Source of the DNA: Bacillota bacterium | Lineage (GTDB): Bacteria; Bacillota; Clostridia; Caldicoprobacterales; DTU083 | Length of the DNA: 56,908 nucleotides | Assembly (NCBI GenBank): GCA_029777885.1 | Contig: JAKORJ010000193.1 | Span: forward strand, 1 to 56,908 | Reading direction: 5' to 3' | Part shown: one piece after another, positions 652 to 23,938 of the stretch | How positions within the stretch are numbered: position 1 is the stretch's first letter | How the letters are laid out: each line of letters opens with the position of its first letter | The notes under the pieces: model-generated | Seen by the model: the letters and a program-made list of their open reading frames with translations, nothing else | Databases searched by the model: none | Told to the model about the DNA's origin: nothing | Program-made: the position numbers and the translations under genes

Positions 652-1713
652 ATGAAGAAAATAGGTGTAGCTATCATTGGCTGTGGTACTATTGCAAACA
701 ACGCCCATATCCCGGCATACTTGAAAAACCCGGAGGTGGAAATAGTCTATTTTTGCGATATCCGGCCCGAGCGGGCTGAAGAGGCAGTCCGCCGCTATGG
801 CGTGGGTGAAGCGGTTGTGGATTATCATGACATACTGCATAGCGACAAGGTAGATGCAGTATCGGTATGTACGCCGAACAATGTGCATGCCCAGATAACC
901 ATAGACTTTCTAAAGGCAGGAAAAGACGTGCTGTGCGAAAAGCCTGCAGCCCGCACATATGAAGATGCGCTTTTGATGCAAAAGGTCCGGCATGAGACAG
1001 GCAGGATACTCAATATCGGCGTATGCAACAGGTTCAACACCAGCGTCAACAAAATAAAGGATCTCATCGATAGCGGGGAGCTGGGAGAAATCTATCATGT
1101 TTATATAAGCTTCCGTGCCCACCGTTCGATCCCCGGGCTGGGCGGAGATTTTACGACGAAGGCAGTAGCCGGAGGCGGAGCGCTTATCGACTGGGGTGTG
1201 CACTTCCTGGACATAGTGATGTACTGCTGCGGGGATCCGAAACCGGTCACAGTTTCCGGCCAAGCATTCAGCAAGCTCGGCAGGGACATAAAGGGTTACA
1301 CCTATACCGATATGTGGGCCGGGCCGCCCAAGCTCGACGGCATATATGATGTAGATGACTCAGTCACTGCGCTTATAAGGACAGAAGGGCCGACGATCAC
1401 TCTGCACGGTGCATGGGCGCAGAACATCGGCACTGATGAAATGTACATAGATTTCATGGGCGACAAAGCCGGCATACGCCTGCAGTACGGCGCTGGATTC
1501 AAGATGTATACAGCTAAAGACGGGGCTCTGCTTGAAATAACCCCAAAATTTACGATGACCAACATGTATGAAAATGAAATAAACAGCTTTATAGAATGCA
1601 TAAAAACCAGGAACGATAATGTTGCATGCATAGATAATGCAGTAATCACTTCACAGATAATGCAGGCTATCTATGATTCCTCTGAAAAAGCTAGGGAAAT
1701 AGTATTGAAATAG
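652..1713 (+). CDS. Gfo/Idh/MocA-family NAD(P)-dependent oxidoreductase
   Basis: RBS AAAGGAAG. N-terminal Rossmann motif MKKIGVAIIGCGTIANN, the conserved VLCEKP motif, and a C-terminal GGGALIDWGVHFLD segment typical of the family. Confidence 0.85.
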   Translation: MKKIGVAIIGCGTIANNAHIPAYLKNPEVEIVYFCDIRPERAEEAVRRYGVGEAVVDYHDILHSDKVDAVSVCTPNNVHAQITIDFLKAGKDVLCEKPAARTYEDALLMQKVRHETGRILNIGVCNRFNTSVNKIKDLIDSGELGEIYHVYISFRAHRSIPGLGGDFTTKAVAGGGALIDWGVHFLDIVMYCCGDPKPVTVSGQAFSKLGRDIKGYTYTDMWAGPPKLDGIYDVDDSVTALIRTEGPTITLHGAWAQNIGTDEMYIDFMGDKAGIRLQYGAGFKMYTAKDGALLEITPKFTMTNMYENEINSFIECIKTRNDNVACIDNAVITSQIMQAIYDSSEKAREIVLK

Positions 1714-1762
1714 CTTGCCTGGCAGCATTCGATATAGCTTTGCGGAAAAGAGAGGTTGTCAC

Positions 1763-2602
1763 ATGAAAAAGATCGGATTGATAGATTATTACCTAGACCA
1801 GTATCATGCAGAAAACTATCCAAACTGGATCCAGGAAGCTTCAAAAGGCGAAATGCAGGTAGCATACGCCTGGGCTAAGATCGACAAGCCCGGTGGAAAG
1901 CCAAACAGCCAATGCTGCAAGGAAACCAATGTCGAGCTCTTGGATTCCATCGAGGAGGTCATTAAAAAGAGCGACTGCCTGATAGTGATGTCACCAGATA
2001 ACCCTGAGATGCATGAGGAGCTCTGCCGCCTGCCTCTGGCCAGCGGTAAGCCTACCTACATAGATAAAACATTTGCTCCTGACCGAGAAACCGCGCTTAG
2101 GATTATCCGTATGGCTGAAGAAGGGCATACGCCTTTCTTTTCGACATCAGCCCTGCGCTATGCCCGTGAATATGTGAATCTGGAGAAGGAAGGCATTGAG
2201 TTCATCAGCAGCCGCGGCCCCGGATCGTTCGACAATTATGCCATACATCAGATAGAACCGATCATCTGCCTAATGGGTCCTGATCTGGATAAGCTGATGT
2301 ATACAGGCGTTGGCAGCACTCCTGCTTTCGTGCTGCGCTATAAGGACGGGCGATGCGCTACGATGGCCCAGCTTGGCTGGGAATGCGATTTCGGCCTGGC
2401 CATCAATTACAGGGGCGATCATGCTGTCGTTATCCAGGGTGCTTCCGACTTTTATCATCAATTCATACTTAAGCTGGTTGAATTCTTTGATGACGGCATT
2501 CCAAAGGTTTCTCCGGAGGAAACCCTGCAGGTCATAACCATTCTTGAATACGGGAAACTGGCCATGACGACACCGGATACCTGGGTGAAGCTCCCCTTAT
2601 AA
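1763..2602 (+). CDS. Gfo/Idh/MocA-like protein lacking the glycine-rich dinucleotide-binding motif
   Basis: ATG at 1763 follows AAAAGAGAGG. It starts MKKIGLIDYYLDQYHAENYP, where the GxGxxG position is replaced, and has family-like GKPTYIDKTF in place of EKP. The track ORF starts earlier (1715) but has no RBS there. Confidence 0.55.
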   Translation: MKKIGLIDYYLDQYHAENYPNWIQEASKGEMQVAYAWAKIDKPGGKPNSQCCKETNVELLDSIEEVIKKSDCLIVMSPDNPEMHEELCRLPLASGKPTYIDKTFAPDRETALRIIRMAEEGHTPFFSTSALRYAREYVNLEKEGIEFISSRGPGSFDNYAIHQIEPIICLMGPDLDKLMYTGVGSTPAFVLRYKDGRCATMAQLGWECDFGLAINYRGDHAVVIQGASDFYHQFILKLVEFFDDGIPKVSPEETLQVITILEYGKLAMTTPDTWVKLPL

Positions 2603-2619
2603 AGAAAGAGGCTGATGCA

Positions 2620-3570
2620 ATGAAAAGGTCCGATGCGCTTGGCAAGTACTTTCATTTCGACAATGATTTCTGGGCCAGACCACTGAAATGCGGCTTTTTG
2701 GACATTTACCAGATAGGCGAGCTATGCTGTGAACCGGGATTCAAGGTTGAGGAGCACGAACAGAGCGTTTATGAGGTCACGTATGTGATATCCGGATGCG
2801 GTTATTCATATGTAAACGGGGACAAAATCAAGATCACCGAGGGGGATGTGATGGTAAACTCGGTGAACCATCGTCATGCAATCGAGGCGGATAAGTCCAG
2901 CATATTAAGATATACCTATATGGGATTTCGTTTCAACGGTGAGGCCCGTACTGATGACATAAGTCGGATAAAGGATTTCTATGACAGCGCACCCTATCAT
3001 TTGGCCAAGGACAAGAACGACATACTGTATCCCTTTATGCATTGCATCGATGAGCTCTACTCAAACAGGGCAAACAGCTTCCATATGATCCGCAGCTATT
3101 GTGAACAGATCGTGATCCTGGCAACCAGGGTTTCCGGGGCCGGATATCAGAAGCTGCCGGACCGGAGCATATACCCCGGGGCGGTTAATTCTGCTGTATA
3201 TTCCGTGATACGATATGTGGAAGACAATATATTCGATATCAAGGGCATACAGGAAATAGCGGATACCCTTGGTTACAACTATACATACCTGTCGCATTTT
3301 TTCAAGGACAAAACCGGCATCACCCTGCAGAAATATATCAGCTACAAGAAAATAGAAAGAGCATTGCAATTGCTGAAATACGGGGGAATAAGCGTAACAC
3401 AGATCAGTTCGCAGCTTGGCTATGAAAGTCCGCAATCCTTTTCGAAGGCATTCCGCCGTGTAATGGGTGTTTCTCCGACACAATACCTTGAATATGAACG
3501 CACTAAAGAGGATGGAGACTTTCATATGCCTCCGGATCCTCTTTATAACGTTAATAAAGTAAGGGGGTAA
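2620..3570 (+). CDS. AraC-family transcriptional regulator (cupin-like N-terminus, HTH C-terminus)
   Basis: The C-terminal AraC signature is IADTLGYNYTYLSHFFKDKTGITLQKY ... SQLGYESPQSFSKAFRRVMGVSPTQY. RBS AAAGAGG. Confidence 0.9.
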   Translation: MKRSDALGKYFHFDNDFWARPLKCGFLDIYQIGELCCEPGFKVEEHEQSVYEVTYVISGCGYSYVNGDKIKITEGDVMVNSVNHRHAIEADKSSILRYTYMGFRFNGEARTDDISRIKDFYDSAPYHLAKDKNDILYPFMHCIDELYSNRANSFHMIRSYCEQIVILATRVSGAGYQKLPDRSIYPGAVNSAVYSVIRYVEDNIFDIKGIQEIADTLGYNYTYLSHFFKDKTGITLQKYISYKKIERALQLLKYGGISVTQISSQLGYESPQSFSKAFRRVMGVSPTQYLEYERTKEDGDFHMPPDPLYNVNKVRG

Positions 3571-3575
3571 TCTCT

Positions 3576-5576
3576 GTGAGTAAAAAGCGTTTACTGGCAT
3601 TTGCCACGAGCCTGTTTCTAATGATTGCGCAAATGGCCGTACCTGTAGTAACAACTGCAACAGGAACGGAACTGGCAAATGTACGAAAACCTGTGTTGAC
3701 AGACGGTGCTCTCGTATATGAAGCGGAACTGCCTTCAGAGAGCGGCGAACAGTACTGGAGTTACAATGCGGATAACAACAACGGCCGGTTCCCATCGTAT
3801 AGCGGCAACGGGTACTTACAGATGTACGGTGGATATGTCCAGTATAATATCAATGTCCCCATAGCCGGCGAGTATTCCATCCATGTGTCCGGCGCAAACT
3901 TGGATCCGTCAGGACAGAAATGGGACAACATCTGGGTCAACAACGGTGAAGAAAGGTTCCTGTACCTGCCGGCTATGCCAGGGTGGCAGGATGTGCAGCC
4001 GTCGACTGCCGCCTGGGATGACAACACCTGGAGCTTTGTGTTTACACCCCAGACGTCATTTACCCTAAATGCCGGTGTAAATACGATCAGAATCGCTGTC
4101 CATGGCAGCGGCGGGTACCTGTACTATGATAAAATAGCGCTGGTACCTGCTGAAGGCTTTACTCCCGGTGAAGCCATATTTATAGAAATCGACGGACTGC
4201 CTGATACTGTTACTATCGACCTAAAAGCAAGGGTTATGGACCTGAAGCAGCGATATGACGCACTTTCACCAGATGAAAAGGCAAAGGTCACCAACTATGA
4301 TAAACTGGAAGCTGCCCTGAATACAATAGATGAGCTCGAAAATGGACCGGTTCAGCAGCCGGTGGCAAGCGGCAATGATCTGGTCTATGAGGTTGAGGTA
4401 TCCCTTCTGAATGGTGAGGCGTATCTAAATAGCACTGTCCCGGGCTTCAGCGGGACAGGATATGTGTATATCGCGTCCGGCAGCGTCACGATGCGGATCA
4501 ATGTGCCCACTGCCGGAAAATACAGGGTCTACGTATCATCAGCTAATGATAACAATGGGGCGCGCTGCGAATACCTGTCCATCAACGGAGGGGCAAACTG
4601 GCTGATAGCCACTCCTGATGCAGCAGTTCATACGTGGTTTGAGTCACAGCCGGGAACTGAAAACTGGGTCAGCGGTGTATTGCAACCCTTACCGCCAGCT
4701 GACGGGTTTGAATTCAACCAGGGCGTGAATACGATAACTATTAGCGCAAACTGGGGCTATGCCCTGTATGACAAAATAGTTCTGTCGCCTGTATCAAGCG
4801 GGGACGAGGGCGGATCTGATACAGAGTCGCCTGTTGAAAAGGTGGAGAACATGATCTCAGCTCTGCCCGATAAGGTCACATCAGATGACAGCAGCAATGT
4901 GATACTTGCTTACGCGGCATACCAGCAGCTGACCCAGGACGAAAAAGCCCAGGTATCAAATGTCCTGAAGCTGTTCATAGCAAGGGCAAGGATCAATGCC
5001 CTGGCCAGCGATCCTGGGGCCGCAGAAGGTGTCCTGCGTTATGAGCTGGAAGAGGGCATGCTGGAAGGAAATACGGCCTTTGTCCAGGAAAAAACGGTAT
5101 TTGACAGCTATGGCGGTACCGGATATGTATACCTCTTTGACCAGAAAATGACCCTGGATTTTTATGTGCCGGAAGCCGGTAATTACATTATATATATCGT
5201 ATCCGGCACTACCGAGGATAATGCGAAATGTGACTATGTATCCGTAAACGGCGGTGAAAAGCTTTTGGTTGCCACACCTGCCGGAAACGTGGGTAAATGG
5301 CTTGAATCACAGCCAGGCACGGAATACTGGGAAAACAATATGCTCAAGCCTGTTCCTCCGGCAAACGGATTCGCGCTCAAGGCCGGCAAGAACACGATCG
5401 AGATATCAGCAAACTGGGGCTATAATGCATATGATTCCATAATCGTTGTACCAATAAGCAACCCAGCTACCGGCGATAGCCAGGACGGGCTGGCAATGGC
5501 TGTCTTACTGGGCCTGGCAAGCATATCCATGCTTGTGTATATGGTCTTAAGGAAAACCGGATCAGTAAAGGCGTGA
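3576..5576 (+). CDS. Cell-wall-anchored surface protein made of three CBM-like modules, with no catalytic domain recognised
   Basis: GTG start 8 nt after AAGGGGG, followed by a signal peptide. Three ~140-aa modules (aa 46-191, 269-405, 487-626) share SGxGY, NGG and ANWGYxxYDxIxxxP motifs in a CBM6/35-like pattern. Helical linkers carry LSPDEKAKV and LTQDEKAQV. The C-terminus has NPATG, a hydrophobic stretch and an RK tail. Confidence 0.75.
   Translation: MSKKRLLAFATSLFLMIAQMAVPVVTTATGTELANVRKPVLTDGALVYEAELPSESGEQYWSYNADNNNGRFPSYSGNGYLQMYGGYVQYNINVPIAGEYSIHVSGANLDPSGQKWDNIWVNNGEERFLYLPAMPGWQDVQPSTAAWDDNTWSFVFTPQTSFTLNAGVNTIRIAVHGSGGYLYYDKIALVPAEGFTPGEAIFIEIDGLPDTVTIDLKARVMDLKQRYDALSPDEKAKVTNYDKLEAALNTIDELENGPVQQPVASGNDLVYEVEVSLLNGEAYLNSTVPGFSGTGYVYIASGSVTMRINVPTAGKYRVYVSSANDNNGARCEYLSINGGANWLIATPDAAVHTWFESQPGTENWVSGVLQPLPPADGFEFNQGVNTITISANWGYALYDKIVLSPVSSGDEGGSDTESPVEKVENMISALPDKVTSDDSSNVILAYAAYQQLTQDEKAQVSNVLKLFIARARINALASDPGAAEGVLRYELEEGMLEGNTAFVQEKTVFDSYGGTGYVYLFDQKMTLDFYVPEAGNYIIYIVSGTTEDNAKCDYVSVNGGEKLLVATPAGNVGKWLESQPGTEYWENNMLKPVPPANGFALKAGKNTIEISANWGYNAYDSIIVVPISNPATGDSQDGLAMAVLLGLASISMLVYMVLRKTGSVKA
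3711..5453 (+). repeat. Three tandem copies of a ~140-aa CBM-like coding module (3711-4148, 4380-4790, 5034-5453)
   Basis: The coordinates come from aligning the translated modules by eye. Copies 2 and 3 share ESQPGTE(N/Y)W, NTI(T/E)ISANWGY and (Y)D(K/S)I(V/I). Confidence 0.7.
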
Positions 5577-5615
5577 CAAGGAGAATATCCATAATAATAG
5601 AGTAATTTGAAAGCA

Positions 5616-5655: not shown

Positions 5656-5677
5656 CTTCCAATATAGGGGGCTGAAC

Positions 5678-7054
5678 ATGGCTAAGAAAACTAAAATCAT
5701 TGCTGCGATATGCATCCTCCTGGCTATATTGACAGTTGCAACGGTATTTGCTATATATCGTCGCACCAGGACCGGGCAGCCAGAAGAGACACCGGGTCCT
5801 GAAACGCCCGGACCGACAGAAACGCCTGATCTTGGCCTATATACAGGCTATGATGCCGTAGTGGTCACAAAGGACACACCGGAGGCGGTGCTTGAAGAAC
5901 TGGCAGGATACGGAATAGAGCCTATCATGTATGAAAAGGGGATGCAGCTTATAGGGCCCGGCGGCATCATACCAGTTCCCAAGTCCGCTGCAGGCTTTAG
6001 CATATACCTGTGCGAGGGCACCTATTCCGCGGAAATGGCCGGCTTTATAAGCTTTAGCAAGCCCTATGCATTGAAAATAACGGGAGCAGCCGCCGACAAG
6101 ACGATCATCGCAGGGGGCAGCCGGATACGCACCAGCAATGCTGCAGCAATTGACATAAGCGGTACTCCGGTATCCCCGGCTAAGGGTATCGTAATAGAAA
6201 ACCTTACCATAAAGGGCTTCGAGTACGGAATAAGGGTAAACTGCGGTGACAGCATGACCCTGCAGGGGCTGAACATTACTGAAAACCGTTTCATAGGTGT
6301 ACAGCTTTCCAATACTGTGAACAGCACTATTAAAGACAGCGAAATAAGCCTGAACGGTGATCCAACAGGCACCGATACCGGCTATGGCCTGTCATTATTG
6401 CTTGGCAGCAAGGACAACACCGTAACCGGAGTGGTATATAAAAACAATGCGAACAGGAATGCCGTAGATTTTCTTGAGCGCGGAGCGATGGACCTGCCGG
6501 AAGGGAACAGCATTTCAATGGAAATGGTCTATGATATTGAACGTAAGGACGTACCGGTCACAGATCCCTTTGAGGAAGCACAAAATGCCAAGCCCTCCGA
6601 CAAAGCGATTCGTTTTGAGCTGGAGGATGCGATCCTGGATAATATAGGCGCTGTCGTGACCACCAATACCGAAAAGGTAGAGAAGTATTCAGGAAAGGGC
6701 TTTGTCTTTCTTTTCAATACGAAGATCACTCTCAAGGTAAACCTGAAGGAAGCAGGACGCTACAGGGTATTCGTCGCAGGCACATCTGATGACGGCAACA
6801 ACAAATGCGATATAGTCCAGGTCAACGGTGGTGGAAAATACTACACATCCTACCTGGGCAAGAACAAGGGGAAATGGCAGCTCAGCCAGCCAGGTACTGA
6901 ATACTGGGAAAACGATGAGCTGCATCCGATAGCGCTTGTAGACGGGTTTGAATTCAAGGCCGGTGAGAATGTGATAGAAATAATAGCAAACTGGGGTTAT
7001 TGTTGCTATGACTACATCATCCTCGACCCGATATCTAAGGGGGATAGCCAATGA
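5678..7054 (+). CDS. Membrane-anchored parallel beta-helix protein with a C-terminal CBM-like module (candidate polysaccharide lyase or hydrolase)
   Basis: N-terminal TM anchor IIAAICILLAILTVATVFAIY and a PETPGPETPGPTETP linker. PbH1-like repeats NLTIKGFEYGIRV, LQGLNITENRFIGVQL and NSTIKDSEISLNG. A fourth copy of the CBM-like module spans aa 311-451 (SQPGTEYWEN, ANWGYCCYDYIILDP). Confidence 0.65.
   Translation: MAKKTKIIAAICILLAILTVATVFAIYRRTRTGQPEETPGPETPGPTETPDLGLYTGYDAVVVTKDTPEAVLEELAGYGIEPIMYEKGMQLIGPGGIIPVPKSAAGFSIYLCEGTYSAEMAGFISFSKPYALKITGAAADKTIIAGGSRIRTSNAAAIDISGTPVSPAKGIVIENLTIKGFEYGIRVNCGDSMTLQGLNITENRFIGVQLSNTVNSTIKDSEISLNGDPTGTDTGYGLSLLLGSKDNTVTGVVYKNNANRNAVDFLERGAMDLPEGNSISMEMVYDIERKDVPVTDPFEEAQNAKPSDKAIRFELEDAILDNIGAVVTTNTEKVEKYSGKGFVFLFNTKITLKVNLKEAGRYRVFVAGTSDDGNNKCDIVQVNGGGKYYTSYLGKNKGKWQLSQPGTEYWENDELHPIALVDGFEFKAGENVIEIIANWGYCCYDYIILDPISKGDSQ
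6608..7030 (+). repeat. Fourth copy of the CBM-like module, located in the beta-helix protein
   Basis: It shares the SQPGTEYWEN and ANWGY..YD.I.L.P motifs with copies at 4380-4790 and 5034-5453. Confidence 0.65.
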
Positions 7055-9630: not shown

Positions 9631-9648
9631 GAAAGGGTGAGTGATCAC

Positions 9649-11118: not shown

Positions 11119-11171
11119 ATCAGCTGATCAATAGCATTACTCTGATTCATAGAAGGGAATGGGTACTTAAG

Positions 11172-14905: not shown

Positions 14906-14918
14906 GGGAGGGATGATC

Positions 14919-15788
14919 ATGAAATGCTGCATTAAAATCGGACCGGAACGTTTTCATGCCGACCAGATCAAATTCTTTATAATGATTTCTCCCTTTGCAG
15001 CCGTGATGCTGCTTCCCATCATATATGTCGTATTTCATGCCTTCAAACCGGTGGATGAGCTCTTTGCATTTCCGCCCAGGTTTATCACCCTGCGGCCTTC
15101 GCTTGAAAATTTCACCCGCCTTCTCCATACAGCGAATTCCTCCAACTATCCGGCAGCCCTGTATATTTTCAACAGCATCCTATCAACCCTGCTGACCGTT
15201 GTCGCAACCCTGTTGATCAGCGCTTCGGCGGGCTATGTGCTGTCCAAGAAGGAGTTTAAAGGAAAAAGGCTGATCATGAATATGAACCAGGCTGCCCTTA
15301 TGTTCGTGCCGGTAGCTGTTGCCGTACCAAGGTACATGATAATAAAAGGTCTGGGCCTGATGGACAGCTTTTTGTCTCACATTTTTCCCTTGCTGGCCAT
15401 GCCTGTAGGCTTATTTTTGGTCAAGCAGTTCATTGACCAGGTCCCGTCATCATTGCTTGAGGCAGCCAGGATAGACGGCTGTTCGGATTATGGGGTGCTG
15501 TTTCGTATAGTCATGCCGATCATCAAGCCGGCATTGGCCACCGTAGCGATCCTGTCCTTTCAGTCTGCCTGGAACAGCGTTGAGGCTTCCCAGATGTTCA
15601 TAGAAAATGAAAAACTGAAGACCTTTGCATATTACATGACAACGGTGACATCTCCCTCGGGCAGCTCTGTAGCAGGCCAGGGGATGGCAGCAGCTGCCGT
15701 CCTGATAATGGTAGTGCCAAATATTATACTGTTCATCATTATGCAGTCCCGGGTAATGAATACGGTTGCCCATTCAGGGATCAAATAG
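14919..15788 (+). CDS. Carbohydrate ABC transporter permease (MalG-like)
   Basis: ATG at 14919 lies 7 nt after AAGGGAGG, while the in-frame ATG at 14913 is too close to the RBS. EAA loop LLEAARIDGCSDYGVLFRIVMPIIKP. Confidence 0.88.
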   Translation: MKCCIKIGPERFHADQIKFFIMISPFAAVMLLPIIYVVFHAFKPVDELFAFPPRFITLRPSLENFTRLLHTANSSNYPAALYIFNSILSTLLTVVATLLISASAGYVLSKKEFKGKRLIMNMNQAALMFVPVAVAVPRYMIIKGLGLMDSFLSHIFPLLAMPVGLFLVKQFIDQVPSSLLEAARIDGCSDYGVLFRIVMPIIKPALATVAILSFQSAWNSVEASQMFIENEKLKTFAYYMTTVTSPSGSSVAGQGMAAAAVLIMVVPNIILFIIMQSRVMNTVAHSGIK

Positions 15789-15799
15789 GGGGTGGGGAC

Positions 15800-17836
15800 A
15801 TGTTTACTGCAAAGCGCCTGTTTATAATGCCTATTTGTGCCATCCTGCTTGCCTGCCTGGCAGTAAATACAGCTGCCGCCCGTATCCCTCAAACCGGCAA
15901 TTCAACCTCGATCACATACACATTATCATCCGACGGCAGCTGGTTGCGTACCCAGGATGCCTATCTGCCGGGCGAGATCCTGTTCCAGGATGACCCCCTG
16001 TGGCAGCCTGAGGATGTGTATGTATATGGCAATTGCCTGTATATTGCTGCCGCAGGCAACGGCTATGTCGTTGCATATGACCTTGATACCAGGAAGACAA
16101 GGATATATGGAGAGGGGACCCTCAATACTCCCACAGGCATATATGTGACCGGCCGGCAGGAGCTTTATGTGGCTGACTCGGGCTTTTCCAAGGTATTTGT
16201 GTTTGACGCTGAAGGCAAACTGCTTAGTGAATACGACAGGCCTGATGAAATGACATTTGGCGCCCAGGCACAATTTAAGCCTAAAAAGCTTGTGGTTGAT
16301 GAGTCAGGCGTCATGTCCATCGTTTCCGAGGGCTCTTATGACGGGGTGATCCAGCTTGGAGCAGAGGGTGAATTTCTGGGATACTTCGGATATAACTCGG
16401 TGCCAATGACCCTGCTTGAGCTGCTGCAGGACCGCTTTTTTACAGAAGAGCAGAAAAAACAGCTGTTCAACAGAATACCCCTGACCTTTTACAATCTCGC
16501 GTCCGATCCGGATGGTATTATATACACCATAACCCAAAGTGCTGTCGGTAATGCAATAAAAAAGCACAATATATCAGGTGTCAACATAATAAAGCATCAG
16601 ATGATCGATGAAAAAAACTTCACTGACATTGCGGTAGGGCCGACAGGACAGATCTATGCTGTGACACAGACAGGCCTGATATTTGAATATGACAATGACG
16701 GCAACCTCCTGTTCTCATTTGGCGGACAGGCTATATCCAGCGAACGCAGCGGCCTGCTCACAATAGCATCAGGTATAGCTGTCGATGATGAATATAACCT
16801 CTATGTGCTCGACAAGGAAAGAGGGCTGGTCCACACCTATGTGCCAACTGCTTTTGCAAATCTGGCCCATGAGGCGATCAATGAATATCGCCAGGGTAGT
16901 TATACATCCAGCAGGGACAAGCTGAATATGCTGCTTATGCTGGCAGGCAATGCCCGGTTTATTTACTATTACCTGGGCAAAAACGAGCTCCAGCTGAGAA
17001 ACCACCAGGCAGCTGCAGTGTTCTTCAGACAAGCCGGCGACCGCAGCGGATATTCGGAAGCCTTCTGGGAGATCAGAAACGATGTCATTAACGCCGTATT
17101 GCCGTGGATGTTTGCCGTATTTTTGGCAACAGTCCTGTTCAACCTTGTCCGTCGGTTGTGGAAAGGAAAACAGGCAGCACATCAAGGAACGCGGTTCCTT
17201 GTGAAAAGCCGTATCCTCAGTGACCTTATGTTCGGATTCAATGTACTAAGGCATCCCATAGACAGCTTTTACGAGGTCAAGACCGGGGCACGTGGGAGCA
17301 TATGGTCAGCAGTGATACTATACCTCCTGGCTTTCGGGGCTTTTGCCTTTGACTACCTGGGCAGGGGCTTTGCTTACAGCCTTAGGACGACAGAAAACAC
17401 CTCGCCCCTTTACGTCATACTTTTGTTCTTCCTGCCGGTTGCCCTGTTTATCATTTGCAGCTATATGGTCAGCGAACTGCATGACGGAAAGGGATGGTTC
17501 ATGACCGTATTTATAGGAATGTCATATGCCCTGGTGCCCTGGATATGTTTTCTTCCTGCGGTAACGGTGATGACCCACGTCCTTGCCCTGAACGAATCCT
17601 TTCTGATCACATTTTCAAGCCTGCTCGTATATGCCTGGACGACAGTGCTTGTGATACTGGCTATCCGTGAGATCCATGAATATGAGCTGCACCAGGTGCT
17701 GGGCAACATCATGCTGACGTTTTTTATGATGGTAGTGGTAATATTTGCATTTTCTATCATAGGGATGTTCTGGGATAAGGCCATAGAAATAGCCTCATCA
17801 ATCACAAGAGAGGTGAAGTATCGTGTCGGGCATTAG
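15800..17836 (+). CDS. Signal peptide + NHL-repeat beta-propeller + TPR-like segment + C-terminal Yip1-type polytopic membrane domain
   Basis: NHL-like blades appear as NTPTGIYVTGRQELYVADSGFSKVFVFDAEGKLL and ASGIAVDDEYNLYVLDKERGLVHTY. The C-terminal ~200 aa have five hydrophobic segments and a Yip1-like lead-in (NVLRHPIDSFYEVKTGARGSIWSAVILYLLAF). Confidence 0.65.
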   Translation: MFTAKRLFIMPICAILLACLAVNTAAARIPQTGNSTSITYTLSSDGSWLRTQDAYLPGEILFQDDPLWQPEDVYVYGNCLYIAAAGNGYVVAYDLDTRKTRIYGEGTLNTPTGIYVTGRQELYVADSGFSKVFVFDAEGKLLSEYDRPDEMTFGAQAQFKPKKLVVDESGVMSIVSEGSYDGVIQLGAEGEFLGYFGYNSVPMTLLELLQDRFFTEEQKKQLFNRIPLTFYNLASDPDGIIYTITQSAVGNAIKKHNISGVNIIKHQMIDEKNFTDIAVGPTGQIYAVTQTGLIFEYDNDGNLLFSFGGQAISSERSGLLTIASGIAVDDEYNLYVLDKERGLVHTYVPTAFANLAHEAINEYRQGSYTSSRDKLNMLLMLAGNARFIYYYLGKNELQLRNHQAAAVFFRQAGDRSGYSEAFWEIRNDVINAVLPWMFAVFLATVLFNLVRRLWKGKQAAHQGTRFLVKSRILSDLMFGFNVLRHPIDSFYEVKTGARGSIWSAVILYLLAFGAFAFDYLGRGFAYSLRTTENTSPLYVILLFFLPVALFIICSYMVSELHDGKGWFMTVFIGMSYALVPWICFLPAVTVMTHVLALNESFLITFSSLLVYAWTTVLVILAIREIHEYELHQVLGNIMLTFFMMVVVIFAFSIIGMFWDKAIEIASSITREVKYRVGH

Positions 17837-20102
17837 AGCAATAAAGCTATCCGTGATTGCGGGGCTGATACCGGCCTTGCTGCTGATATCAGGCTGCAGC
17901 TATTCATTGCAGCAGGATACAGGCTTGTCAGCAGGGATGCTTGTGAGCGGCAGTCTTGAACTAAGCTCCAGCCGCCATACCAAGCCGGAGCCTGCTTCGG
18001 AAGAGATTCCGGGGTTGAGCCTGGACGGGTTTGAAAAGAAACTGGAAAACGAACGATTTGAGCTATACTTCCGGGGCGAGACCGGGGCTATCAGGCTGAA
18101 GGATAAACGCAGCGGCTATGTATGGGGATCGATAGCTGAAGATAAGCCTTTCAATCTGAACAGGACCTGGTCAGCAATAGCCAATTCTGTCATAGCTATA
18201 GATGTATATGATGTCAACGGGGCGCTGAAAACCCTTGGCGCAGGAAAAGACGGGTTGATCCTGTCCGTTCATGGAAACAGGATCGAGGCAAAAGTGCATT
18301 GGCCTGAACAGCAGATAGAATTGAAATTTGAAATGGAGCTGACAGCAGAAGGGCTCAGGCTCAGGCTGGATGATGAGTCCATACGTGAAATAGGGGAATT
18401 TAGCCTGGGTGCCGTTTATTTCCTTCCCTTTTTCGGTTCAACGATAGGGGATGAAAAGCAAGGCTATATTTTTGTTCCAGACGGCTGCGGCGCGCTCATC
18501 CGCTTTACAAAGCCAAGGGGATACCTGCAGGGCTTTTCAAAGAGAGTGTATGGCAACGACTTTGGGATAGACAGCCTGTCTGCTATAGAAGACCTGGGGG
18601 CAAACCGTGTAAATGCCTTTGCCATGGATGAGGAAACCGTTTCTTTGCCAGTGTTCGGCGTCGTGCATGGCACAAAGCAGAACGCATTTCTGGCTGTAAT
18701 CGAGCAGGGTGAATCCTATGCAGAGATACAGGCTAATCCCGCAGGCATTACAACGGACTACAACAGGGTGACCGCCAGGTTTGTGTACCGTCAGAAATAT
18801 GAACAGCCGGTAAGCAAGGCAGGCGCCGGCGTCCAGGTGCTGCAGAAAAACAGAAATGAGGTCAATCCGGTTATAAGCTACTGCTTTTTGACCGGCGAAA
18901 ACGCGGATTATGTCGGTATGGCCAAGGCATACCGCAGGTATCTTGTTGACAAGGGGATCTTGGAGAAACAGCAGCCTAAGGATGGAGATATTGCTTTAAG
19001 GCTCGATTTCCTTGCCGCGGATATCAAAAAGGAGTTCATTGGGACTTCAGTGCTGAAGATAACAGGCATTGATGAAATAGAGCAACTGGTAAGGAAGCTT
19101 CATGACATGGGGATCACCAACCTGGAGGTCTCCTTGTCCGGATGGCAGGATGGCGGGCTAAACGGTCACAGGAAGACCCGGATTAGTACTGATACAGTCT
19201 ATGGCGGGATATCGAGCCTGGGCGACCTCAAGCAGCTGGTTGGACCCGACGGCAAGCTCAGCCTGTACCTAAGTCCGTTTACCGCCCTGAAGGAACAGCT
19301 CGATCTAAGGAGCGAGGCTGCGATAACAGTATCGCAAAATGTAGTTAAAATTAAAACCGATGATGAGTCTTACCCCTACCTTTATTTCGTAAAGACCAGC
19401 AAGGCGCTGGATACGCTTGAAAACCAGGTATCTGCGATGGCAGCGGCCGGCTATGCCAATTGGGTATTGGATGATGTCGGATATCTCTTATACGGCGAGT
19501 ATCTGCAGAACAAGACTATTTCCCGGGAAGAGGCCCGGCTGTTGGTGCAGCAGGCAGTGGCCGATCTAGCGTGCAGGTACGGCAGGTTGGAAATTGTCCG
19601 TCCCAATCAGTACCTGCTTGAATATACCGATGCCTACCTGTCAGCGCCTATAGTCAGCAGTCAGCTGTTGTTTGAGACCGATACAGTCCCCTTTCTGCAG
19701 ATAGTGCTATCGGGCTATATAACGATGTATGCTCCCTACACTAATCTAAGCCTGTATTCCCGAGCTGACATCCTCAGGCAGATAGATTACAACATGCTTC
19801 CCTCATTCCTGCTTACAGGGAAGACCAATTATGAGCTAAAACGTACGGCTTCAGCTCATATCCAATCCTCATGGATAGAACACTGGGATGAGTATATTGT
19901 TGAAGTCTATGAAATGATGAATGAAATCATGTCAAAGATAAGGGGACAGGCATTCGTAGACAGGATCGTGCTTGAAACCGGCCTTGTAAAAAATATATAT
20001 GAATCAGGTACAGTATATATCAACTACAATTCAACTGACAAACAGGCCGACGGGCTGTCTATCCCGGCTATGTCAGCGATTTATGCGGAAGGCAGGAAGT
20101 GA
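17823..20102 (+). CDS. Large lipoprotein, DUF5696-like (function unknown; candidate glycan-active enzyme)
   Basis: 14-nt overlap with the upstream gene and lipobox LLISGCSY. The motif GYIFVPDGCGALIRF and the overall size recall DUF5696 proteins. From memory, these neighbour Yip1 and large SBP genes in Paenibacillus and Clostridia. Confidence 0.5.
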   Translation: MSGIRAIKLSVIAGLIPALLLISGCSYSLQQDTGLSAGMLVSGSLELSSSRHTKPEPASEEIPGLSLDGFEKKLENERFELYFRGETGAIRLKDKRSGYVWGSIAEDKPFNLNRTWSAIANSVIAIDVYDVNGALKTLGAGKDGLILSVHGNRIEAKVHWPEQQIELKFEMELTAEGLRLRLDDESIREIGEFSLGAVYFLPFFGSTIGDEKQGYIFVPDGCGALIRFTKPRGYLQGFSKRVYGNDFGIDSLSAIEDLGANRVNAFAMDEETVSLPVFGVVHGTKQNAFLAVIEQGESYAEIQANPAGITTDYNRVTARFVYRQKYEQPVSKAGAGVQVLQKNRNEVNPVISYCFLTGENADYVGMAKAYRRYLVDKGILEKQQPKDGDIALRLDFLAADIKKEFIGTSVLKITGIDEIEQLVRKLHDMGITNLEVSLSGWQDGGLNGHRKTRISTDTVYGGISSLGDLKQLVGPDGKLSLYLSPFTALKEQLDLRSEAAITVSQNVVKIKTDDESYPYLYFVKTSKALDTLENQVSAMAAAGYANWVLDDVGYLLYGEYLQNKTISREEARLLVQQAVADLACRYGRLEIVRPNQYLLEYTDAYLSAPIVSSQLLFETDTVPFLQIVLSGYITMYAPYTNLSLYSRADILRQIDYNMLPSFLLTGKTNYELKRTASAHIQSSWIEHWDEYIVEVYEMMNEIMSKIRGQAFVDRIVLETGLVKNIYESGTVYINYNSTDKQADGLSIPAMSAIYAEGRK

Positions 20103-21061
20103 TGAGAGAGATGAGCCATTTTAGGTCAAACCTGTTATCTAGGAGACAGAAGAAAGCTGCAGCCGGAGCCAAATGTTCAACCGATGAAGTCAGAAGGCCA
20201 TGGCTCAGCAGTATGCAGGCAAAAGAGGCTGTGAGCGGCTACTTGTTTTTCTTGCCCTGGCTGGCAGGCTTTCTGATATTTACGATCTATCCTTTTGTAT
20301 ACTCGGTTCTGCTGAGCTTCAGTGAGGTCATCCTTTCTCCTGCCGGGATCAAAAGGTCGTTCATAGGTCTTAAATGGTATCGTGAAGCCCTGACTGCGGA
20401 TGCGACCTATCCTGTAAGCCTGTTGGATACGCTGAGATTTATAGTGCTATCCACACCCATGATCACAGTTGCTGCATTGCTGCTTGCCTTGCTGCTCAAC
20501 GGCAGGTTCAGGGGCAGGACTTTTTTCCGGGCGGTATTTTTCTTTCCGGTGATCATAATAAGCGGGCCTGTGATAGCAGAGCTATTAAGCACCAAGGCTG
20601 CTGTTGTGATAAATCCGTCGGATTATGCTGTTTATGAGTTTGTCCGGACCCTGCCAGGGTTCCTGTCGATGCCCCTCCTTTATATATTTGACAATATTGT
20701 GCTGATACTATGGTTTTCCGGAGTACAAGTCATTATTTTCCTGGCTGGCATCCAAAAAATCGGACAGCCTATCCGGGAGGCAGCATCCATCGACGGTGCT
20801 TCAGCATGGCAGATGTTCTGGAAGATCTACCTGCCCTTCCTAAAGCCGCTGGTTCTGCTGAACACGATTTATACCATAGTGATGCTGTCGGGCTTTTCAA
20901 GCAATGCAGTGAATGGGGAGATCGTAAACAAAATGACACTGACAGGGAAAGTATATGGGTATTCATCGGCTATGTCATGGATCTATTTCATCTTGCTGAT
21001 TATACTGCTTGGCATAACCTATCTGATATTCAGCGAAAGAAAGGGAAGGGCGGGCTACTGA
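20099..21061 (+). CDS. Carbohydrate ABC transporter permease (second pair, MalF-like)
   Basis: It overlaps the upstream stop. The start is ambiguous among GTG 20099, ATG 20102 and ATG 20111. EAA loop IREAASIDGASAWQMFWKIYLPFLKP. Confidence 0.85.
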   Translation: MMREMSHFRSNLLSRRQKKAAAGAKCSTDEVRRPWLSSMQAKEAVSGYLFFLPWLAGFLIFTIYPFVYSVLLSFSEVILSPAGIKRSFIGLKWYREALTADATYPVSLLDTLRFIVLSTPMITVAALLLALLLNGRFRGRTFFRAVFFFPVIIISGPVIAELLSTKAAVVINPSDYAVYEFVRTLPGFLSMPLLYIFDNIVLILWFSGVQVIIFLAGIQKIGQPIREAASIDGASAWQMFWKIYLPFLKPLVLLNTIYTIVMLSGFSSNAVNGEIVNKMTLTGKVYGYSSAMSWIYFILLIILLGITYLIFSERKGRAGY

Positions 21062-21951
21062 TGATTTCAAGACGCAGAATCCGTGTGTTTGCTGGGCTTC
21101 AGCTTAGATACTTCCTATTGATCGGCATAGGCCTTGTATTTCTATATCCTGTTGCCTATATGCTGGTCAATTCAGCCAAGAGCCTGCCTGACCTGGTCAA
21201 TCCCACTATAGAGTGGATACCTTCTACCTTGTACCTGGACAATTACAGCAGGGCGTTGAAGGTGCTGGATTACAGGCATACCCTGATCGTTACGGTCCTG
21301 CTTGTCGCCATGGAAACCCTGCTCCAGACCTTTTCCTGCTCCCTGGCCGGATATGCCCTGGCGCGGTACAGGATGCCTTTTAAACGGTTCTGGATGGCAA
21401 TGGTCGTTATTACCTTCCTGATACCTTCCCATGTGACCCTGATACCAAAATACATAATGTTCTCAAGCTACCAGCTGGTAGGCAGCCCCCTGTCTGTCTT
21501 GCTGCCGGCCTCCCTGGGACAGGGCATCAACAGTACTGTATTTGTTTTGATTTTCTATCAGTTTTTCTCGTCGTACCCCAGATCATTCGATGAAGCGGCC
21601 CAGATAGACGGAGCCGGCAGGCTAAGGGTTTTTTTCCGGATAGCCCTGCCTGTGTGCGTCCCCGCGATAGTAGTCTCATTGCTCTTTTCCTTTGTATGGT
21701 TCTGGAATGAGACCTATACTTCGGGCTTGCTTCTTGGCTCAGGCTTAAGGACATTGCCCATGAAGCTTCAATCCTTTGTGGAGGAGTACAGTCGGTCTTT
21801 CAGTTCCGGTAGTGACGGTGTTAACAGGATCAATGAGAGCATCCGCTCTGCTGCGACCCTGCTGGTTATAACGCCTCTCCTCATGCTGTATTTGGTTATG
21901 CAGCGCTATTTCATAGAGGGAGTGGAGTCATCGGGGATAACAGGAGAATAG
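21061..21951 (+). CDS. Carbohydrate ABC transporter permease (second pair, MalG-like)
   Basis: ATG at 21061 overlaps the upstream TGA by 1 nt. The track ORF (20710-21951) extends upstream out of frame over the previous gene. EAA loop FDEAAQIDGAGRLRVFFRIALPV. Confidence 0.85.
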   Translation: MISRRRIRVFAGLQLRYFLLIGIGLVFLYPVAYMLVNSAKSLPDLVNPTIEWIPSTLYLDNYSRALKVLDYRHTLIVTVLLVAMETLLQTFSCSLAGYALARYRMPFKRFWMAMVVITFLIPSHVTLIPKYIMFSSYQLVGSPLSVLLPASLGQGINSTVFVLIFYQFFSSYPRSFDEAAQIDGAGRLRVFFRIALPVCVPAIVVSLLFSFVWFWNETYTSGLLLGSGLRTLPMKLQSFVEEYSRSFSSGSDGVNRINESIRSAATLLVITPLLMLYLVMQRYFIEGVESSGITGE

Positions 21952-21986
21952 CAGTATGCAGAAACGGAAGGGACTTGGATCGGACA

Positions 21987-23039
21987 ATGGACAAGTGCTA
22001 TGGTGTTGTACTTATAGGATGCGGGCATATAGGAGAGCAGCATATTGAGGATATATATTATCGCGACAATGTGGATATAGTTGGGGTCGTGGATGTAAAT
22101 GAGGAGCTGGCACGCACCTTTGCGCGAAAATACAATGCAAAGGCCTATGGAACGGACTATCTGCCCTTTCTCAGAATGAAGGAAACAGATATCGTTATAA
22201 TAGCAACTTACGCTGACAGCCATCTAGGGATATTGCAGGACTGCCTGCGATATAAAAAGCATGTGCTGTGTGAAAAACCCATTGCTTCCAGCCTGGCGGC
22301 AGGGAAAAGGTTCTACTCCCTGGTAAAGGGTACTCAGCAGAAGGTGCTGGTTGCCCATATACTGAGGCATAACAAATCATACCAGAAGGTCGCTGAGCTC
22401 ATACAAAGCGGTGCCATAGGCAGGCTTAGGCTGATACGAATGGTCCAGAATCATCATGCGATAAACTGGCAGAGATATAAAAGGCTTATGGCTGACTGCC
22501 CTCCCATAGTGGACTGTGGTGTTCACTATATCGATGTTATGCAGTGGTTTTCGGGCTCGCGGGTGGTCGAGGTAAGCGGGATAAGCTGCAGGCTTGACAG
22601 TGATGTTGATGTAGACAATTACGGTGTTATAAACGTAAGGTTTGCTAACGGGTGTATCGGATACTATGAAGCCGGATGGAGCAGAAACCTGGGATCATGC
22701 AATGTCAAAGAGTTTATTGGCGATAGGGGACGGATCAGCCTTACCCTCAGGGAGAACAGGCCTGCCAACCGGGAGGAGGGCGACTTGATAACCCTGTATA
22801 GCAGTGATACCGGAGAGTACAAAACGATCAATATCCAGTCAAAATATAACGATATGTATGCGCAGCTGTCCGCGCTGATCGACATGATCGAATCCAATGC
22901 ACCGGCGAATCCGGATATAGACGATGTCTATAGTGCCTTTTACACTGCAATGGTGGCAAAAGAGGCAATTGAGAACAAATGCTGTTACCGGATACAGCCT
23001 TTTGATGTGCGCACTGCTGTTGGCCACTTAAGCATTTGA
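21987..23039 (+). CDS. Gfo/Idh/MocA-family oxidoreductase
   Basis: ATG at 21987 follows GGAAGGG. Motifs YGVVLIGCGHIGEQH, HVLCEKP and IVDCGVHYIDVMQW. Confidence 0.85.
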   Translation: MDKCYGVVLIGCGHIGEQHIEDIYYRDNVDIVGVVDVNEELARTFARKYNAKAYGTDYLPFLRMKETDIVIIATYADSHLGILQDCLRYKKHVLCEKPIASSLAAGKRFYSLVKGTQQKVLVAHILRHNKSYQKVAELIQSGAIGRLRLIRMVQNHHAINWQRYKRLMADCPPIVDCGVHYIDVMQWFSGSRVVEVSGISCRLDSDVDVDNYGVINVRFANGCIGYYEAGWSRNLGSCNVKEFIGDRGRISLTLRENRPANREEGDLITLYSSDTGEYKTINIQSKYNDMYAQLSALIDMIESNAPANPDIDDVYSAFYTAMVAKEAIENKCCYRIQPFDVRTAVGHLSI

Positions 23040-23083
23040 AATATACAAAATATAAACTATTAATGCGTAAAGGAGAGGATATT

Positions 23084-23938
23084 ATGAGCAATTTTAAAAT
23101 CGGGATCATAGCAGACGGATTGCGGCTTCCGTTCAGAGAGAGCATGGAGAAATGCGCGCAAATGGGCGCTGATGGAGTTCAGCTTTATGCCGTGAGCGGA
23201 GATATGGCACCCGAGAACATGACCCGCTCCGATCTCGTTGAGAAGCGTTCCATCATAAGGGATTGCGGCCTGGAGGTTTCCGCCCTTTGCGGTGACCTGG
23301 GGGGGCACGGATTTGCTGTTTTGGAGGAAAATGCCTGGAAAATCGAGAAATCAAAGCGCATTATTGATCTTGCCCTGGAGTTCGGCTGCAATATCGTTAC
23401 GACTCATATCGGGGTGATCCCGGCAGACAAGGCCGGAGCAAGGTATGGGATCATGCAAGAGGCCTGCAACGAGCTGGCTGAATATGCGCACAAATGTGGT
23501 GCATACTTAGCTATTGAAACAGGGCCTGAACCGGCCACTCATCTGAAAGAGTTTTTAGACAGCCTGAGCAGCAAAGGCCTTGCTGTCAACATGGATCCCG
23601 CTAATCTGGTAATGGTCACCGGTGATGATCCGGTACAGGCAGTATATACACTGAAGGAATATATCGTACATACTCATGCCAAGGATGGAATAATGTTACA
23701 AAAGACTGACCCGCAGGTCATCTACGACTTTTTCGCTGAAGGCGGTATAGGCGATCTACGGCTGGAGGACTATTTCAAGGAGATGCCCCTGGGACAGGGG
23801 AATGTGGACTTTGGCAGGTATCTGGCTGCGCTAAAGGATATTGGATATAGCGGCTACCTGACTATTGAAAGAGAGCTTGGCAGCGATCCGGAAGCTGATA
23901 TACGGGCGGCAGTTGATTTCCTGAGAAAGATGATATAA
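23084..23938 (+). CDS. Sugar phosphate isomerase/epimerase-family (xylose-isomerase-like TIM barrel) protein
   Basis: RBS AAAGGAGAGG. Family motifs are GADGVQLYA, HIGVIP, LAIETGPE, NMDPANL, HTHAKDG and GYSGYLTIERE. Confidence 0.85.
   Translation: MSNFKIGIIADGLRLPFRESMEKCAQMGADGVQLYAVSGDMAPENMTRSDLVEKRSIIRDCGLEVSALCGDLGGHGFAVLEENAWKIEKSKRIIDLALEFGCNIVTTHIGVIPADKAGARYGIMQEACNELAEYAHKCGAYLAIETGPEPATHLKEFLDSLSSKGLAVNMDPANLVMVTGDDPVQAVYTLKEYIVHTHAKDGIMLQKTDPQVIYDFFAEGGIGDLRLEDYFKEMPLGQGNVDFGRYLAALKDIGYSGYLTIERELGSDPEADIRAAVDFLRKMI

Follow-up and report, generated by a model that had tools for sequence, protein, structure and literature searches.

Gene content of the locus

We analyzed a 56,908-nucleotide stretch of DNA (hereafter, the window) from a Bacillota bacterium of the class Clostridia (order Caldicoprobacterales; assembly GCA_029777885.1, contig JAKORJ010000193.1), and focused on positions 652-23938, a run of genes that probably constitutes a glycan-utilization locus built around a composite ATP-binding cassette (ABC) import module. 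At the center of this module lies a lipoprotein of the Pfam family DUF5696, encoded among substrate-binding proteins (SBPs) and permeases. From the listing of open reading frames (ORFs), 16 + strand genes were counted in this interval, with protein topology called from hydrophobicity:

652-1713, +: GFO1, cytoplasmic NAD(P)-dependent sugar oxidoreductase of the GFO/IDH/MocA family (Pfam GFO_IDH_MocA, E 1e-26)
1715-2602 (probable start 1763, 279 aa), +: divergent, cytoplasmic GFO-like protein without GxGxxG (weak Pfam GFO match, E 2e-5)
2620-3570, +: cytoplasmic AraC-family regulator, cupin sensor plus helix-turn-helix (HTH_18 E 7e-21, AraC_binding E 6e-8)
3576-5576, +: 666-aa surface protein with three similar CBM35-type carbohydrate-binding modules (CBM_35 E 3e-19), a signal peptide and a C-terminal transmembrane (TM) anchor
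5678-7054, +: 458-aa protein with a Beta_helix domain (Pfam E 6e-9), a C-terminal CBM35 and an N-terminal TM anchor
7051-9630, +: 859-aa secreted protein, DUF4434 (Pfam E 2e-32) followed by fn3 and a C-terminal beta-sandwich region
9637-11118, +: small SBP, 493-aa lipoprotein (lipobox-like LVSAC; solved SBP 22hh E 7.6e-21; no Pfam match)
11172-14009, +: giant SBP, 945 aa, exported (Pfam SBP_bac_1 at residues 536-821)
14006-14905 and 14913-15788, +: first ABC permease pair (Pfam BPD_transp_1; about 6 TM segments each)
15800-17836, +: 678-aa membrane protein, NHL propeller plus multi-TM Yip1 domain (Yip1 E 2e-9, NHL E 7e-7)
17823-20102, +: DUF5696 lipoprotein (Pfam E 2e-160; lipobox LISGC)
20099-21061 and 21061-21951, +: second ABC permease pair (Pfam BPD_transp_1)
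21975-23039, +: GFO3, cytoplasmic GFO/IDH/MocA oxidoreductase (Pfam E 9e-23)
23036-23938, +: cytoplasmic xylose-isomerase-like TIM barrel of the sugar-phosphate isomerase/epimerase superfamily (Pfam AP_endonuc_2, E 1e-35)

The initial annotation of this stretch, made from the letters alone, had described 19 tightly packed same-strand genes here; that count proved too high, while the shared direction and the short or overlapping junctions were borne out. Intergenic spacing ranges from -14 to about +100 bp, with the largest gap at about 100 bp, and overlapping junctions were confirmed at 7051/7054, 14006/14009, 17823/17836 and 20099/20102, as well as at the TGATG at 21061. The DUF5696 gene starts at a GTG with a AGAGGTGA ribosome-binding site and has a 14-nt overlap with the stop of the NHL/Yip1 gene. 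The families originally named (AraC, CBM-only, beta-helix, DUF4434, DUF5696, two SBPs and four permeases) agree with our Pfam and Protein Data Bank (PDB) matches, as do the glycoside hydrolases (GHs) reported elsewhere in the window, GH2 (29581) and GH38 (49177). To these components we add the two GFO/IDH/MocA oxidoreductases, the divergent GFO-like protein, the xylose-isomerase-like TIM barrel, and the NHL/Yip1 protein. No protein encoded in 652-23938 matched a classical GH family of Pfam.

Genes on the + strand fill almost all of the 57-kb window, in which GC skew is consistently positive, and co-directionality is therefore uninformative on its own. The case for 652-23938 as one unit instead comes from synteny conserved elsewhere. 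Promoter-like sites were found at 587-616, 5' of the first gene, and at 23942-23970, 5' of the next, unrelated gene, and no terminator-like site was found in the intergenic gaps within the locus; however, both scans yielded site counts no better than those of shuffled sequence, and we give them little weight.

Conservation of the locus and of its transport module

Synteny with other Clostridia and with Paenibacillus genomes, proposed as a check in the initial annotation, was found at two scales: the whole gene order in three metagenomic contigs (L088, L089, and L090), and its transport core across 80 species loci, Paenibacillaceae included. On the three contigs, the order GFO, ~280-aa protein, AraC, CBM35, beta-helix/CBM35, and DUF4434 is intact, followed by SBP, giant SBP, two permeases, and NHL/Yip1 up to DUF5696. 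The DUF5696 sequence of the window itself was recovered on six Logan contigs, and because the neighboring genes were identical in 3/3 contigs examined, we consider the assembly reproducible. The closest non-self DUF5696 relatives share 57-61% identity with it, one of them from a metagenome-assembled genome (MAG) of the Oscillospiraceae.

The core module comprises the small SBP, the giant SBP, two permeases, NHL/Yip1, DUF5696, and two further permeases, i.e., seven to eight genes. This core recurs in loci L001 and L003, and a GFO and TIM-barrel pair is added to it in L001, L008, and L009. To survey it more broadly, we scanned one genome per species and found at least 590 places encoding a DUF5696 relative, then compared the best 80 of these with the window proteins, each gene being scored only in loci with enough flanking DNA. 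The giant SBP was present in 69/70 loci, the four permeases, in gene order, in 73/74, 73/74, 76/76, and 75/75, and NHL/Yip1 in 75/77, always directly upstream of DUF5696. A recognizable small SBP was found in 47/70 loci, and its position was otherwise often filled by a divergent SBP. Hence every core gene except the small SBP is kept in at least 97% of loci with enough flank, and core gene order was invariant among the 80 loci. Hosts include Clostridia, Bacilli, Erysipelotrichia, Halanaerobiales, Thermotogota, and Chloroflexota, and a profile search of 1.84 billion representatives returned 3,991 DUF5696 clusters (50% identity) at E <= 1e-30. ATPase-like ORFs made up only 2 of 366 flanking ORFs; a shared ABC ATPase encoded elsewhere is usual for such sugar importers in Firmicutes.

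Residues 1-520 of the giant SBP (11172-12731) gave no Pfam match at E <= 1, yet the tblastn match is nearly full length in 69/70 loci (median query range 69-939), and this N-terminal extension of ~500 aa is thus an obligatory part of the module. The best PDB match of the giant SBP, and the closest to its SBP domain among all solved structures, is Lin1841 (E 9e-12), the beta-1,2-glucooligosaccharide binder from Listeria. The NHL/Yip1 protein combines an exported NHL-type propeller region with TM segments at 429-447 and 499-655. In Bacillus, the Yip1-family protein YknW has been described as an accessory component of an ABC transporter (PMC4887032). A literature search on the combination of Yip1, SBP, GH, and permease returned only an irrelevant paper, and the composite module (giant SBP, NHL/Yip1, and GH129-like lipoprotein, see below), together with its DUF4434/beta-helix flavor, appears undescribed in the searchable literature.

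The DUF5696 lipoprotein

The protein encoded at 17823-20102 matches Pfam DUF5696 (PF18952) with a score of 535.7 bits (cutoff 25.6), and the alignment takes in nearly the whole model (positions 10-611 of 612). Our literature search on this family found no paper, and neither a structure nor a CAZy assignment was found for it. The AlphaFold2 model of the protein, computed from a 42-sequence alignment (predicted local distance difference test, pLDDT, 90; predicted template-modeling score, pTM, 0.90), displays three domains: an N-terminal beta-sandwich, a (beta/alpha)8 barrel, and a C-terminal beta-sandwich. When this model was compared to the PDB with Foldseek, GH129 structures ranked at the top, followed by GH101, GH36, and GH31, with E values of 3e-31 for ZgGH129 and 2e-23 for NagBb, ranging to 1e-21 (TM-scores 0.57-0.73; best structures 5opq, 8rzk, and 5wzn, at 12-13% identity). 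A PDB search with the single sequence gave nothing meaningful and no GH129; a 42-sequence profile matched NagBb (E 3.5e-7) and ZgGH129 (1e-5) over about 150 residues only, within which a GW..GG segment conserved in DUF5696 aligns with GH129. This indicates relatedness at the level of the superfamily and not of the family, so that we consider DUF5696 a candidate new GH family, predicted to be a remote member of the GH129 superfamily and to lie outside GH129 proper.

Four carboxylate positions are strongly conserved among DUF5696 homologs down to about 25% identity (D220, 100%; D/E559, 93%; D/E620, 98%; D/E655, 100%). The loops that follow barrel strands 4 and 6 in the model contain D/E559 and D/E620; this is where the nucleophile and acid/base of the superfamily sit, and these two may be the catalytic residues. 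To our knowledge, the GH129-type fold is known only from alpha-glycosidases, with GH129, GH101, GH31, and GH36 all acting on alpha-glycosides.

Surface and secreted proteins

Three exported proteins precede the module. The DUF4434 match (PF14488) of the secreted protein scores 113.2 bits against a cutoff of 30 and spans model positions 2-281 of 283. Across 32 homologs, E181 (GWYLPFEFNN), D258, and E303 (WNNPExY) are invariant. The DUF4434 family profile matches PDB 4h41 (E 6e-8), with E181, in a GWY..E motif, aligned to a Glu of 4h41, and some homologs show weak PF00150 (Cellulase/GH5) matches. This fits a candidate two-glutamate retaining TIM-barrel glycosidase, perhaps of the clan GH-A type, whose catalytic glutamates follow strands 4 (acid/base) and 7 (nucleophile), with strands in the window protein assigned by inference from sequence. 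The C-terminal region of the protein returned weak F5/8-type-C matches only, at Pfam E <= 1, and a literature search on DUF4434 yielded only an irrelevant paper.

For the small, right-handed beta-helix protein (5678-7054; N-terminal TM segment at 7-25), Foldseek of the AlphaFold2 model (pLDDT 87) clearly identified the C-terminal domain as CBM35/CBM6. This domain dominates the matches, and the helix matched phage capsule-depolymerase tailspikes weakly. A profile search against the PDB returned marginal matches to AlgE epimerases and tailspikes only and led to no family assignment; we consider this protein a candidate depolymerase. In the 666-aa protein, which has homologs in L088-L090, CBM35 matches were obtained for modules 1 and 2 of 3 (E 1e-6 for the N-terminal module), and the third CBM35-like copy was read from the repeated pattern in the translation; its hydrophobic segments lie at 7-25 and 639-657. 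The AraC regulator encoded just upstream occupies the same position in L088-L090.

In public gene calls the DUF4434 protein is 825 aa long; its start is placed 34 codons 3' of the 7051 ATG (7051-7153), and the signal peptide is thereby lost. Likewise, the giant SBP is called short in L004 and L005, at 861 or 896 aa. Automatic annotation would therefore mislocalize both proteins.

Cytoplasmic oxidoreductases and TIM-barrel protein

Neither a TM segment nor a signal peptide was detected in GFO1, which has a homolog in L088 and is 73-74% identical to proteins of L008 and L009. Its NCBIfam matches (inositol, levoglucosan, and glycoside 3-dehydrogenases) all fall far below the cutoffs; in particular, against the BT_2158 and BT_2159 glycoside-3-dehydrogenase models it reaches 53-63 bits where 650-750 are required, which places GFO1 outside these families. 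GFO3 shares 25% identity with GFO1, accompanies the module in L001, L008, and L009, and has inositol dehydrogenases and DgpA among its PDB matches. The TIM-barrel protein matches PDB 3tva (E 1.5e-24), and homologs 73% identical to it are encoded beside GFO3 in the same three loci. The GFO and TIM-barrel set may be a separable add-on to the module.

The third member of this group, encoded at 1715-2602, shows weak PDB matches to GFO-family oxidoreductases. As annotated, this longest ORF probably begins 48 nt upstream of the true start, and ~280-aa homologs adjoin GFO1 in L088 and hold the corresponding place in L089 and L090. We rejected an ordinary GFO paralog as its identity, since BLASTP against GFO1 was not significant and its GFO-like fold is drawn from weak Pfam and PDB similarity. 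It may instead be a non-catalytic partner subunit.

Enzyme sets of sister loci and substrate clues

To obtain clues about the substrate, we grouped the flanking ORFs of all 80 loci into clusters, whose representatives were then annotated. These flanks are overwhelmingly glycan-catabolic, with LacI- or AraC-type regulators, and five flavors were distinguished. Flavor (a), in 32/80 loci with hosts including Bacillaceae, Paenibacillaceae, and Chloroflexota, carries GH144-like (PF10091), SOGP (1,2-beta-oligoglucan phosphorylase, PF21250), GH35-like, and GH3 genes. Gene clusters with GH144-clan beta-1,2-glucanases, SOGP, and SGL have been described by the Nakajima group as a beta-1,2-glucan enzyme set (PMC12102758), and a GH35 enzyme belongs to this set as well (PMC8861115). 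Flavor (b), mainly from Erysipelotrichia, Lachnospiraceae (including Roseburia), and Thermotogota, is a laminarin-like set of GH16, GH30, GH5, and GH3 with a 1,070-aa cytoplasmic protein without Pfam match. Flavor (c) carries GH31 and was found in Ruminococcaceae, Oscillospiraceae, and Lachnospiraceae, flavor (d) combines GH30 with AraC, and flavor (e) is the set of the window locus itself, i.e., DUF4434, beta-helix, CBM35, GFO, and TIM barrel. Overall, the transport core is common to loci with beta-1,2-glucan, beta-1,3/1,6-glucan-type, or GH31 enzyme sets.

The ~1,070-aa protein of flavor (b) (L016:14826-18050, L024, L073, and L079) always adjoins GH16 and carries the motif SFLPG.AG..GIP.W.FY.NRGQ. 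It may resemble the beta-1,3-oligoglucan phosphorylases of GH161/GH149.

A neighbor-joining tree of DUF5696 groups sequences by flank flavor and not by taxonomy: Lachnospiraceae fall in three clades, and one Thermotogota locus lies near the clades formed by the GH30 and DUF4434 loci of Clostridia. Because the tree follows flavor, module and enzymes seem to move together, DUF5696 seems to co-diversify with the substrate, and a substrate-linked role of DUF5696 can be argued for. The pattern does indicate that such modules are horizontally mobile over long timescales. Many of the flanking GH16, GH30, GH5, and GH31 proteins carry signal peptides or lipoboxes, suggesting that the module imports oligosaccharides and not whole polymers; on the same grounds, we rejected the module as a macromolecule importer with all endo-enzymes cytoplasmic.

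Within 652-23938, Pfam detected neither an SOGP nor a GH144-clan gene. A cytoplasmic GH144-like gene (PF10091, beta-1,2-glucanase-type) is however encoded at 38615-39844 of the window, 15 kb from the module, and its product shares 50-60% identity with those of genes directly 3' of the module in Bacillaceae, Paenibacillaceae, and Chloroflexota. For the window locus, we consider a glucan-like polymer, or another neutral hexose polymer akin to the sister-locus substrates, the most likely substrate, and an unusual polymer, as envisaged in the initial annotation, is a possible target.

Proposed function and alternative explanations

We propose that 652-23938 is probably an AraC-controlled glycan-utilization operon, or operon pair, which would perform surface capture, extracellular cleavage, composite ABC uptake, and cytoplasmic conversion, each step being read from family membership, topology, and synteny. 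Once the locus is induced through the AraC-type regulator, a polysaccharide would be held at the cell surface by the anchored three-module CBM35-like protein, with help from the CBM35 of the beta-helix protein, and cut outside the cell by the secreted DUF4434 protein, with Glu181 and Glu303 as putative catalytic residues; the membrane-anchored beta-helix protein would probably join in this cleavage. The resulting oligosaccharides would be bound by the two lipoprotein SBPs, including the giant one, and imported through the two permease pairs and the NHL/Yip1 subunit, with an ABC ATPase supplied from elsewhere in the genome and the DUF5696 lipoprotein trimming or debranching the oligosaccharide at the transporter. 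In the cytoplasm, the two GFO oxidoreductases, the GFO-like partner, and the xylose-isomerase-like TIM barrel would then convert the sugar via a keto-sugar, leading either to isomerization into central metabolism or to oxidative (non-Koshland) cleavage of the remaining glycosidic bonds.

This agrees with the original description of a Gram-positive polysaccharide utilization locus (gpPUL) relying on enzyme families without assigned activity, given the regulator, the ABC module, the CBM35 proteins, and the unassigned exported families. Regulator, transporter, and degradative enzymes are co-localized, as is customary for a gpPUL, although the latter are only remote or putative GHs. The lack of classical GH signatures noted at the outset holds for signatures only, given the remote GH-like character of DUF5696 and DUF4434.

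Several observations weigh against the operon as we propose it. No ABC ATPase is encoded in the window. Scores of the GFO and TIM-barrel proteins all lie well short of the NCBIfam equivalog cutoffs, and the set is absent from L003. The short beta-helix has a weak and non-specific likeness to phage capsule-depolymerase tailspikes and AlgE epimerases, and in DUF5696 conservation is poor at D550/D551, which directly follow barrel strand 4. What this proposal leaves unexplained above all is the alpha-type fold of DUF5696 set against the beta-glucan enzymes of most sister loci. More ambitiously, the module may represent an undescribed class of multi-component ABC glycan importer, with two translocons, a propeller-Yip1 subunit, and a GH129-like enzyme at the point of uptake, spread among Bacillota, Thermotogota, and Chloroflexota by horizontal gene transfer (HGT) and pluggable into different enzyme sets, in which DUF5696 would be a new GH family and the window flavor would target a polymer outside known CAZy families. 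We put this forward tentatively, as a possibility that falls short of an even chance.

Since an alpha-glycosidase fold is invariant in a mostly beta-glucan-associated module, a non-catalytic role of DUF5696 is the first alternative. It could be a catalytically dead glycan-binding or structural lipoprotein which, with NHL/Yip1, scaffolds or gates the translocons while the flanking enzymes perform the cleavage. DUF5696 is indeed constant while the flanking sets vary (beta-1,2, beta-1,3/1,6, GH31, and DUF4434), its canonical post-strand-4 position (D550/D551) is not conserved, most flanking beta-glucan sets would not need the alpha-linkage cleavage typical of GH129-type folds, and a Yip1-family protein, YknW, is a known ABC accessory subunit (PMC4887032). 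However, the 93-100% conservation of D220, D/E559, D/E620, and D/E655 at about 25-30% identity and the alignment of the active-site-proximal GW..GG motif with GH129 speak against a dead enzyme, and the flavor-tracking tree suggests specific recognition or catalysis, though specific binding would fit as well. Altogether, we regard a dead DUF5696 as unlikely.

Bond breaking could alternatively be oxidative, which we consider somewhat doubtful: the GFO enzymes would generate 3-keto-glycosides, followed by elimination and hydration with help from the TIM barrel, which would explain the missing classical GHs. The core of a described non-Koshland glycoside-cleavage cluster consists of two GFO enzymes and a sugar-phosphate isomerase (bioRxiv 10.1101/2024.03.25.586180). 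The same family combination that defines this broad-specificity AL/BT cluster is found here, as two GFO oxidoreductases, the GFO-like protein, and the AP_endonuc_2 TIM barrel; DgpA C-glycoside oxidoreductases appear among the PDB matches, and GFO and TIM-barrel genes are kept with the module in L001, L008, L009, and L088, with GFO genes also accompanying it in Sutcliffiella and Paenibacillus loci. On the other hand, the BT_2158/BT_2159 scores lie an order of magnitude below their cutoffs (53-63 bits vs 650-750), the locus encodes no DUF1080-type partner, and the window proteins are cytoplasmic whereas AL proteins have signal peptides and are described as periplasmic. In addition, L003 lacks the set altogether, and a GFO protein paired with a TIM barrel is just as characteristic of the catabolism of inositol or rare sugars. 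Finally, instead of foraging for exogenous glycans, the locus might remodel or recycle the cell's own envelope or exopolysaccharide, given that all exported components are cell-anchored or lipoproteins, that the beta-helix resembles capsule depolymerases, and that a rhomboid protease and envelope-related genes are encoded nearby. We find this highly improbable: glycosyltransferases, flippases, polymerases, and chain-length regulators were found neither in nor beside the locus, ABC systems that depend on an SBP are importers, classic catabolic enzymes and phosphorylases are encoded in sister loci, and regulators are of sugar-responsive types, AraC here and AraC or LacI in sister loci.

Genomic surroundings

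The genes downstream of the locus are unrelated housekeeping genes (rhomboid, aminotransferase, thioredoxin-reductase-like, and phosphoglucosamine-mutase-like). An adjacent ISL3 transposase fragment had been taken as a hint of an accessory origin; this was not upheld, as no Pfam or plasmid match was obtained, GC is uniform (0.48-0.52 in the locus, the same as in the remaining window), and the same housekeeping genes flank the locus in independent assemblies. The 53-aa ORF at the window edge (1-159, -) had no Pfam match at E <= 0.01 and no plasmid tblastn match, and is too short for ISL3 to be excluded. It is an N-terminus (MLNSNYIQ...HECPSCRELTDSI) with a CPxC motif that runs off the window. 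The region 160-650 is AT-rich, and GC in the first 2 kb of the window is 0.43.

Further downstream, 35517-37133 and 37154-38512 encode a paralogous pair of exported proteins, one with a lipobox and the other with an N-terminal TM segment, located directly upstream of the GH144-like gene. Neither matched Pfam; both contain a GFSASG serine-hydrolase-type elbow and may be novel esterases, as judged from this motif. On the opposite strand (-), 40892-43930 encodes a 543-aa regulator of the LuxR/GerE type and a 461-aa SBP; their genes adjoin the GH144-like/PAP2 region and are among the very few minus-strand genes of the window.

Relation to known systems

These results turn a large domain of unassigned function into an enzyme or transport hypothesis, namely a GH129-like lipoprotein locked in a rigid transporter module. 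Sister loci suggest substrates with which the module could be deorphanized (beta-1,2-glucan, laminarin-type glucans, and GH31 substrates), including in cultivable Bacillus, Paenibacillus, and Fictibacillus, and for gut Clostridia the window locus points to a conserved locus type that signature-based annotation of carbohydrate-active enzymes (CAZymes) scores as glycosidase-free. Their value is mainly for CAZyme and transporter specialists: an ABC-based glycan-utilization locus is a known kind of system, and established concepts are unchallenged.

Among individual proteins, DUF5696 has a three-domain architecture in common with both the alpha-N-acetylgalactosaminidase NagBb of Bifidobacterium bifidum and the 3,6-anhydro-D-galactosidase ZgGH129 of Zobellia. 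Unlike GH129, it is a separate Pfam family, an exported lipoprotein, and encoded within a transporter operon, in a context of mostly beta-glucan enzymes instead of mucin O-glycans or carrageenan. The DUF4434 protein belongs to the same Pfam family as 4h41, deposited as a 'putative alpha-L-fucosidase'; however, 4h41 consists of one 340-aa domain only, for which no activity has been demonstrated, whereas the window protein is secreted and carries fn3 and a further ~380 aa of beta-sandwich modules. Like the AL1-AL5/BT clusters, the window locus pairs two GFO/IDH/MocA oxidoreductases with a sugar-phosphate-isomerase-type TIM barrel, but in contrast to AL/BT and to DgpA/DgpBC C-glycoside cleavage, its proteins are cytoplasmic, come without a DUF1080 protein, and fall below the NCBIfam models.

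At the level of transport, a Yip1-domain membrane protein is encoded with an ABC transporter in both the YknWXYZ system of Bacillus and the window module. This comparison is at the Yip1 domain only. YknWXYZ works as an exporter and includes a membrane-fusion protein, and YknW lacks a large NHL propeller ectodomain. The beta-1,2-glucooligosaccharide cluster of Listeria innocua encodes the SBP Lin1841, two permeases, the SOGP Lin1839, and a GH3, with no ATPase encoded there. It and the window locus are thus both Firmicute ABC sugar importers without an ATPase of their own. However, Listeria relies on a single ordinary SBP and a single permease pair, whereas the window module has two SBPs, one with the 500-aa extension, two permease pairs, NHL/Yip1, and DUF5696; Listeria-type beta-1,2-glucan enzymes are absent from the window locus, with the GH144-like gene 15 kb away.

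A further parallel is with the gpPULs of gut Clostridia, Roseburia and Eubacterium among them, in which a regulator, one or more extracellular degradative enzymes, and an ABC transporter with a lipoprotein SBP are encoded co-directionally in one cluster. The window locus repeats this arrangement, its degradative enzymes being putative, and cell-anchored CBM proteins are present as well. It differs from them in that its degradative enzymes belong to unassigned families, and its transporter is a seven-to-eight-gene module conserved across phyla.

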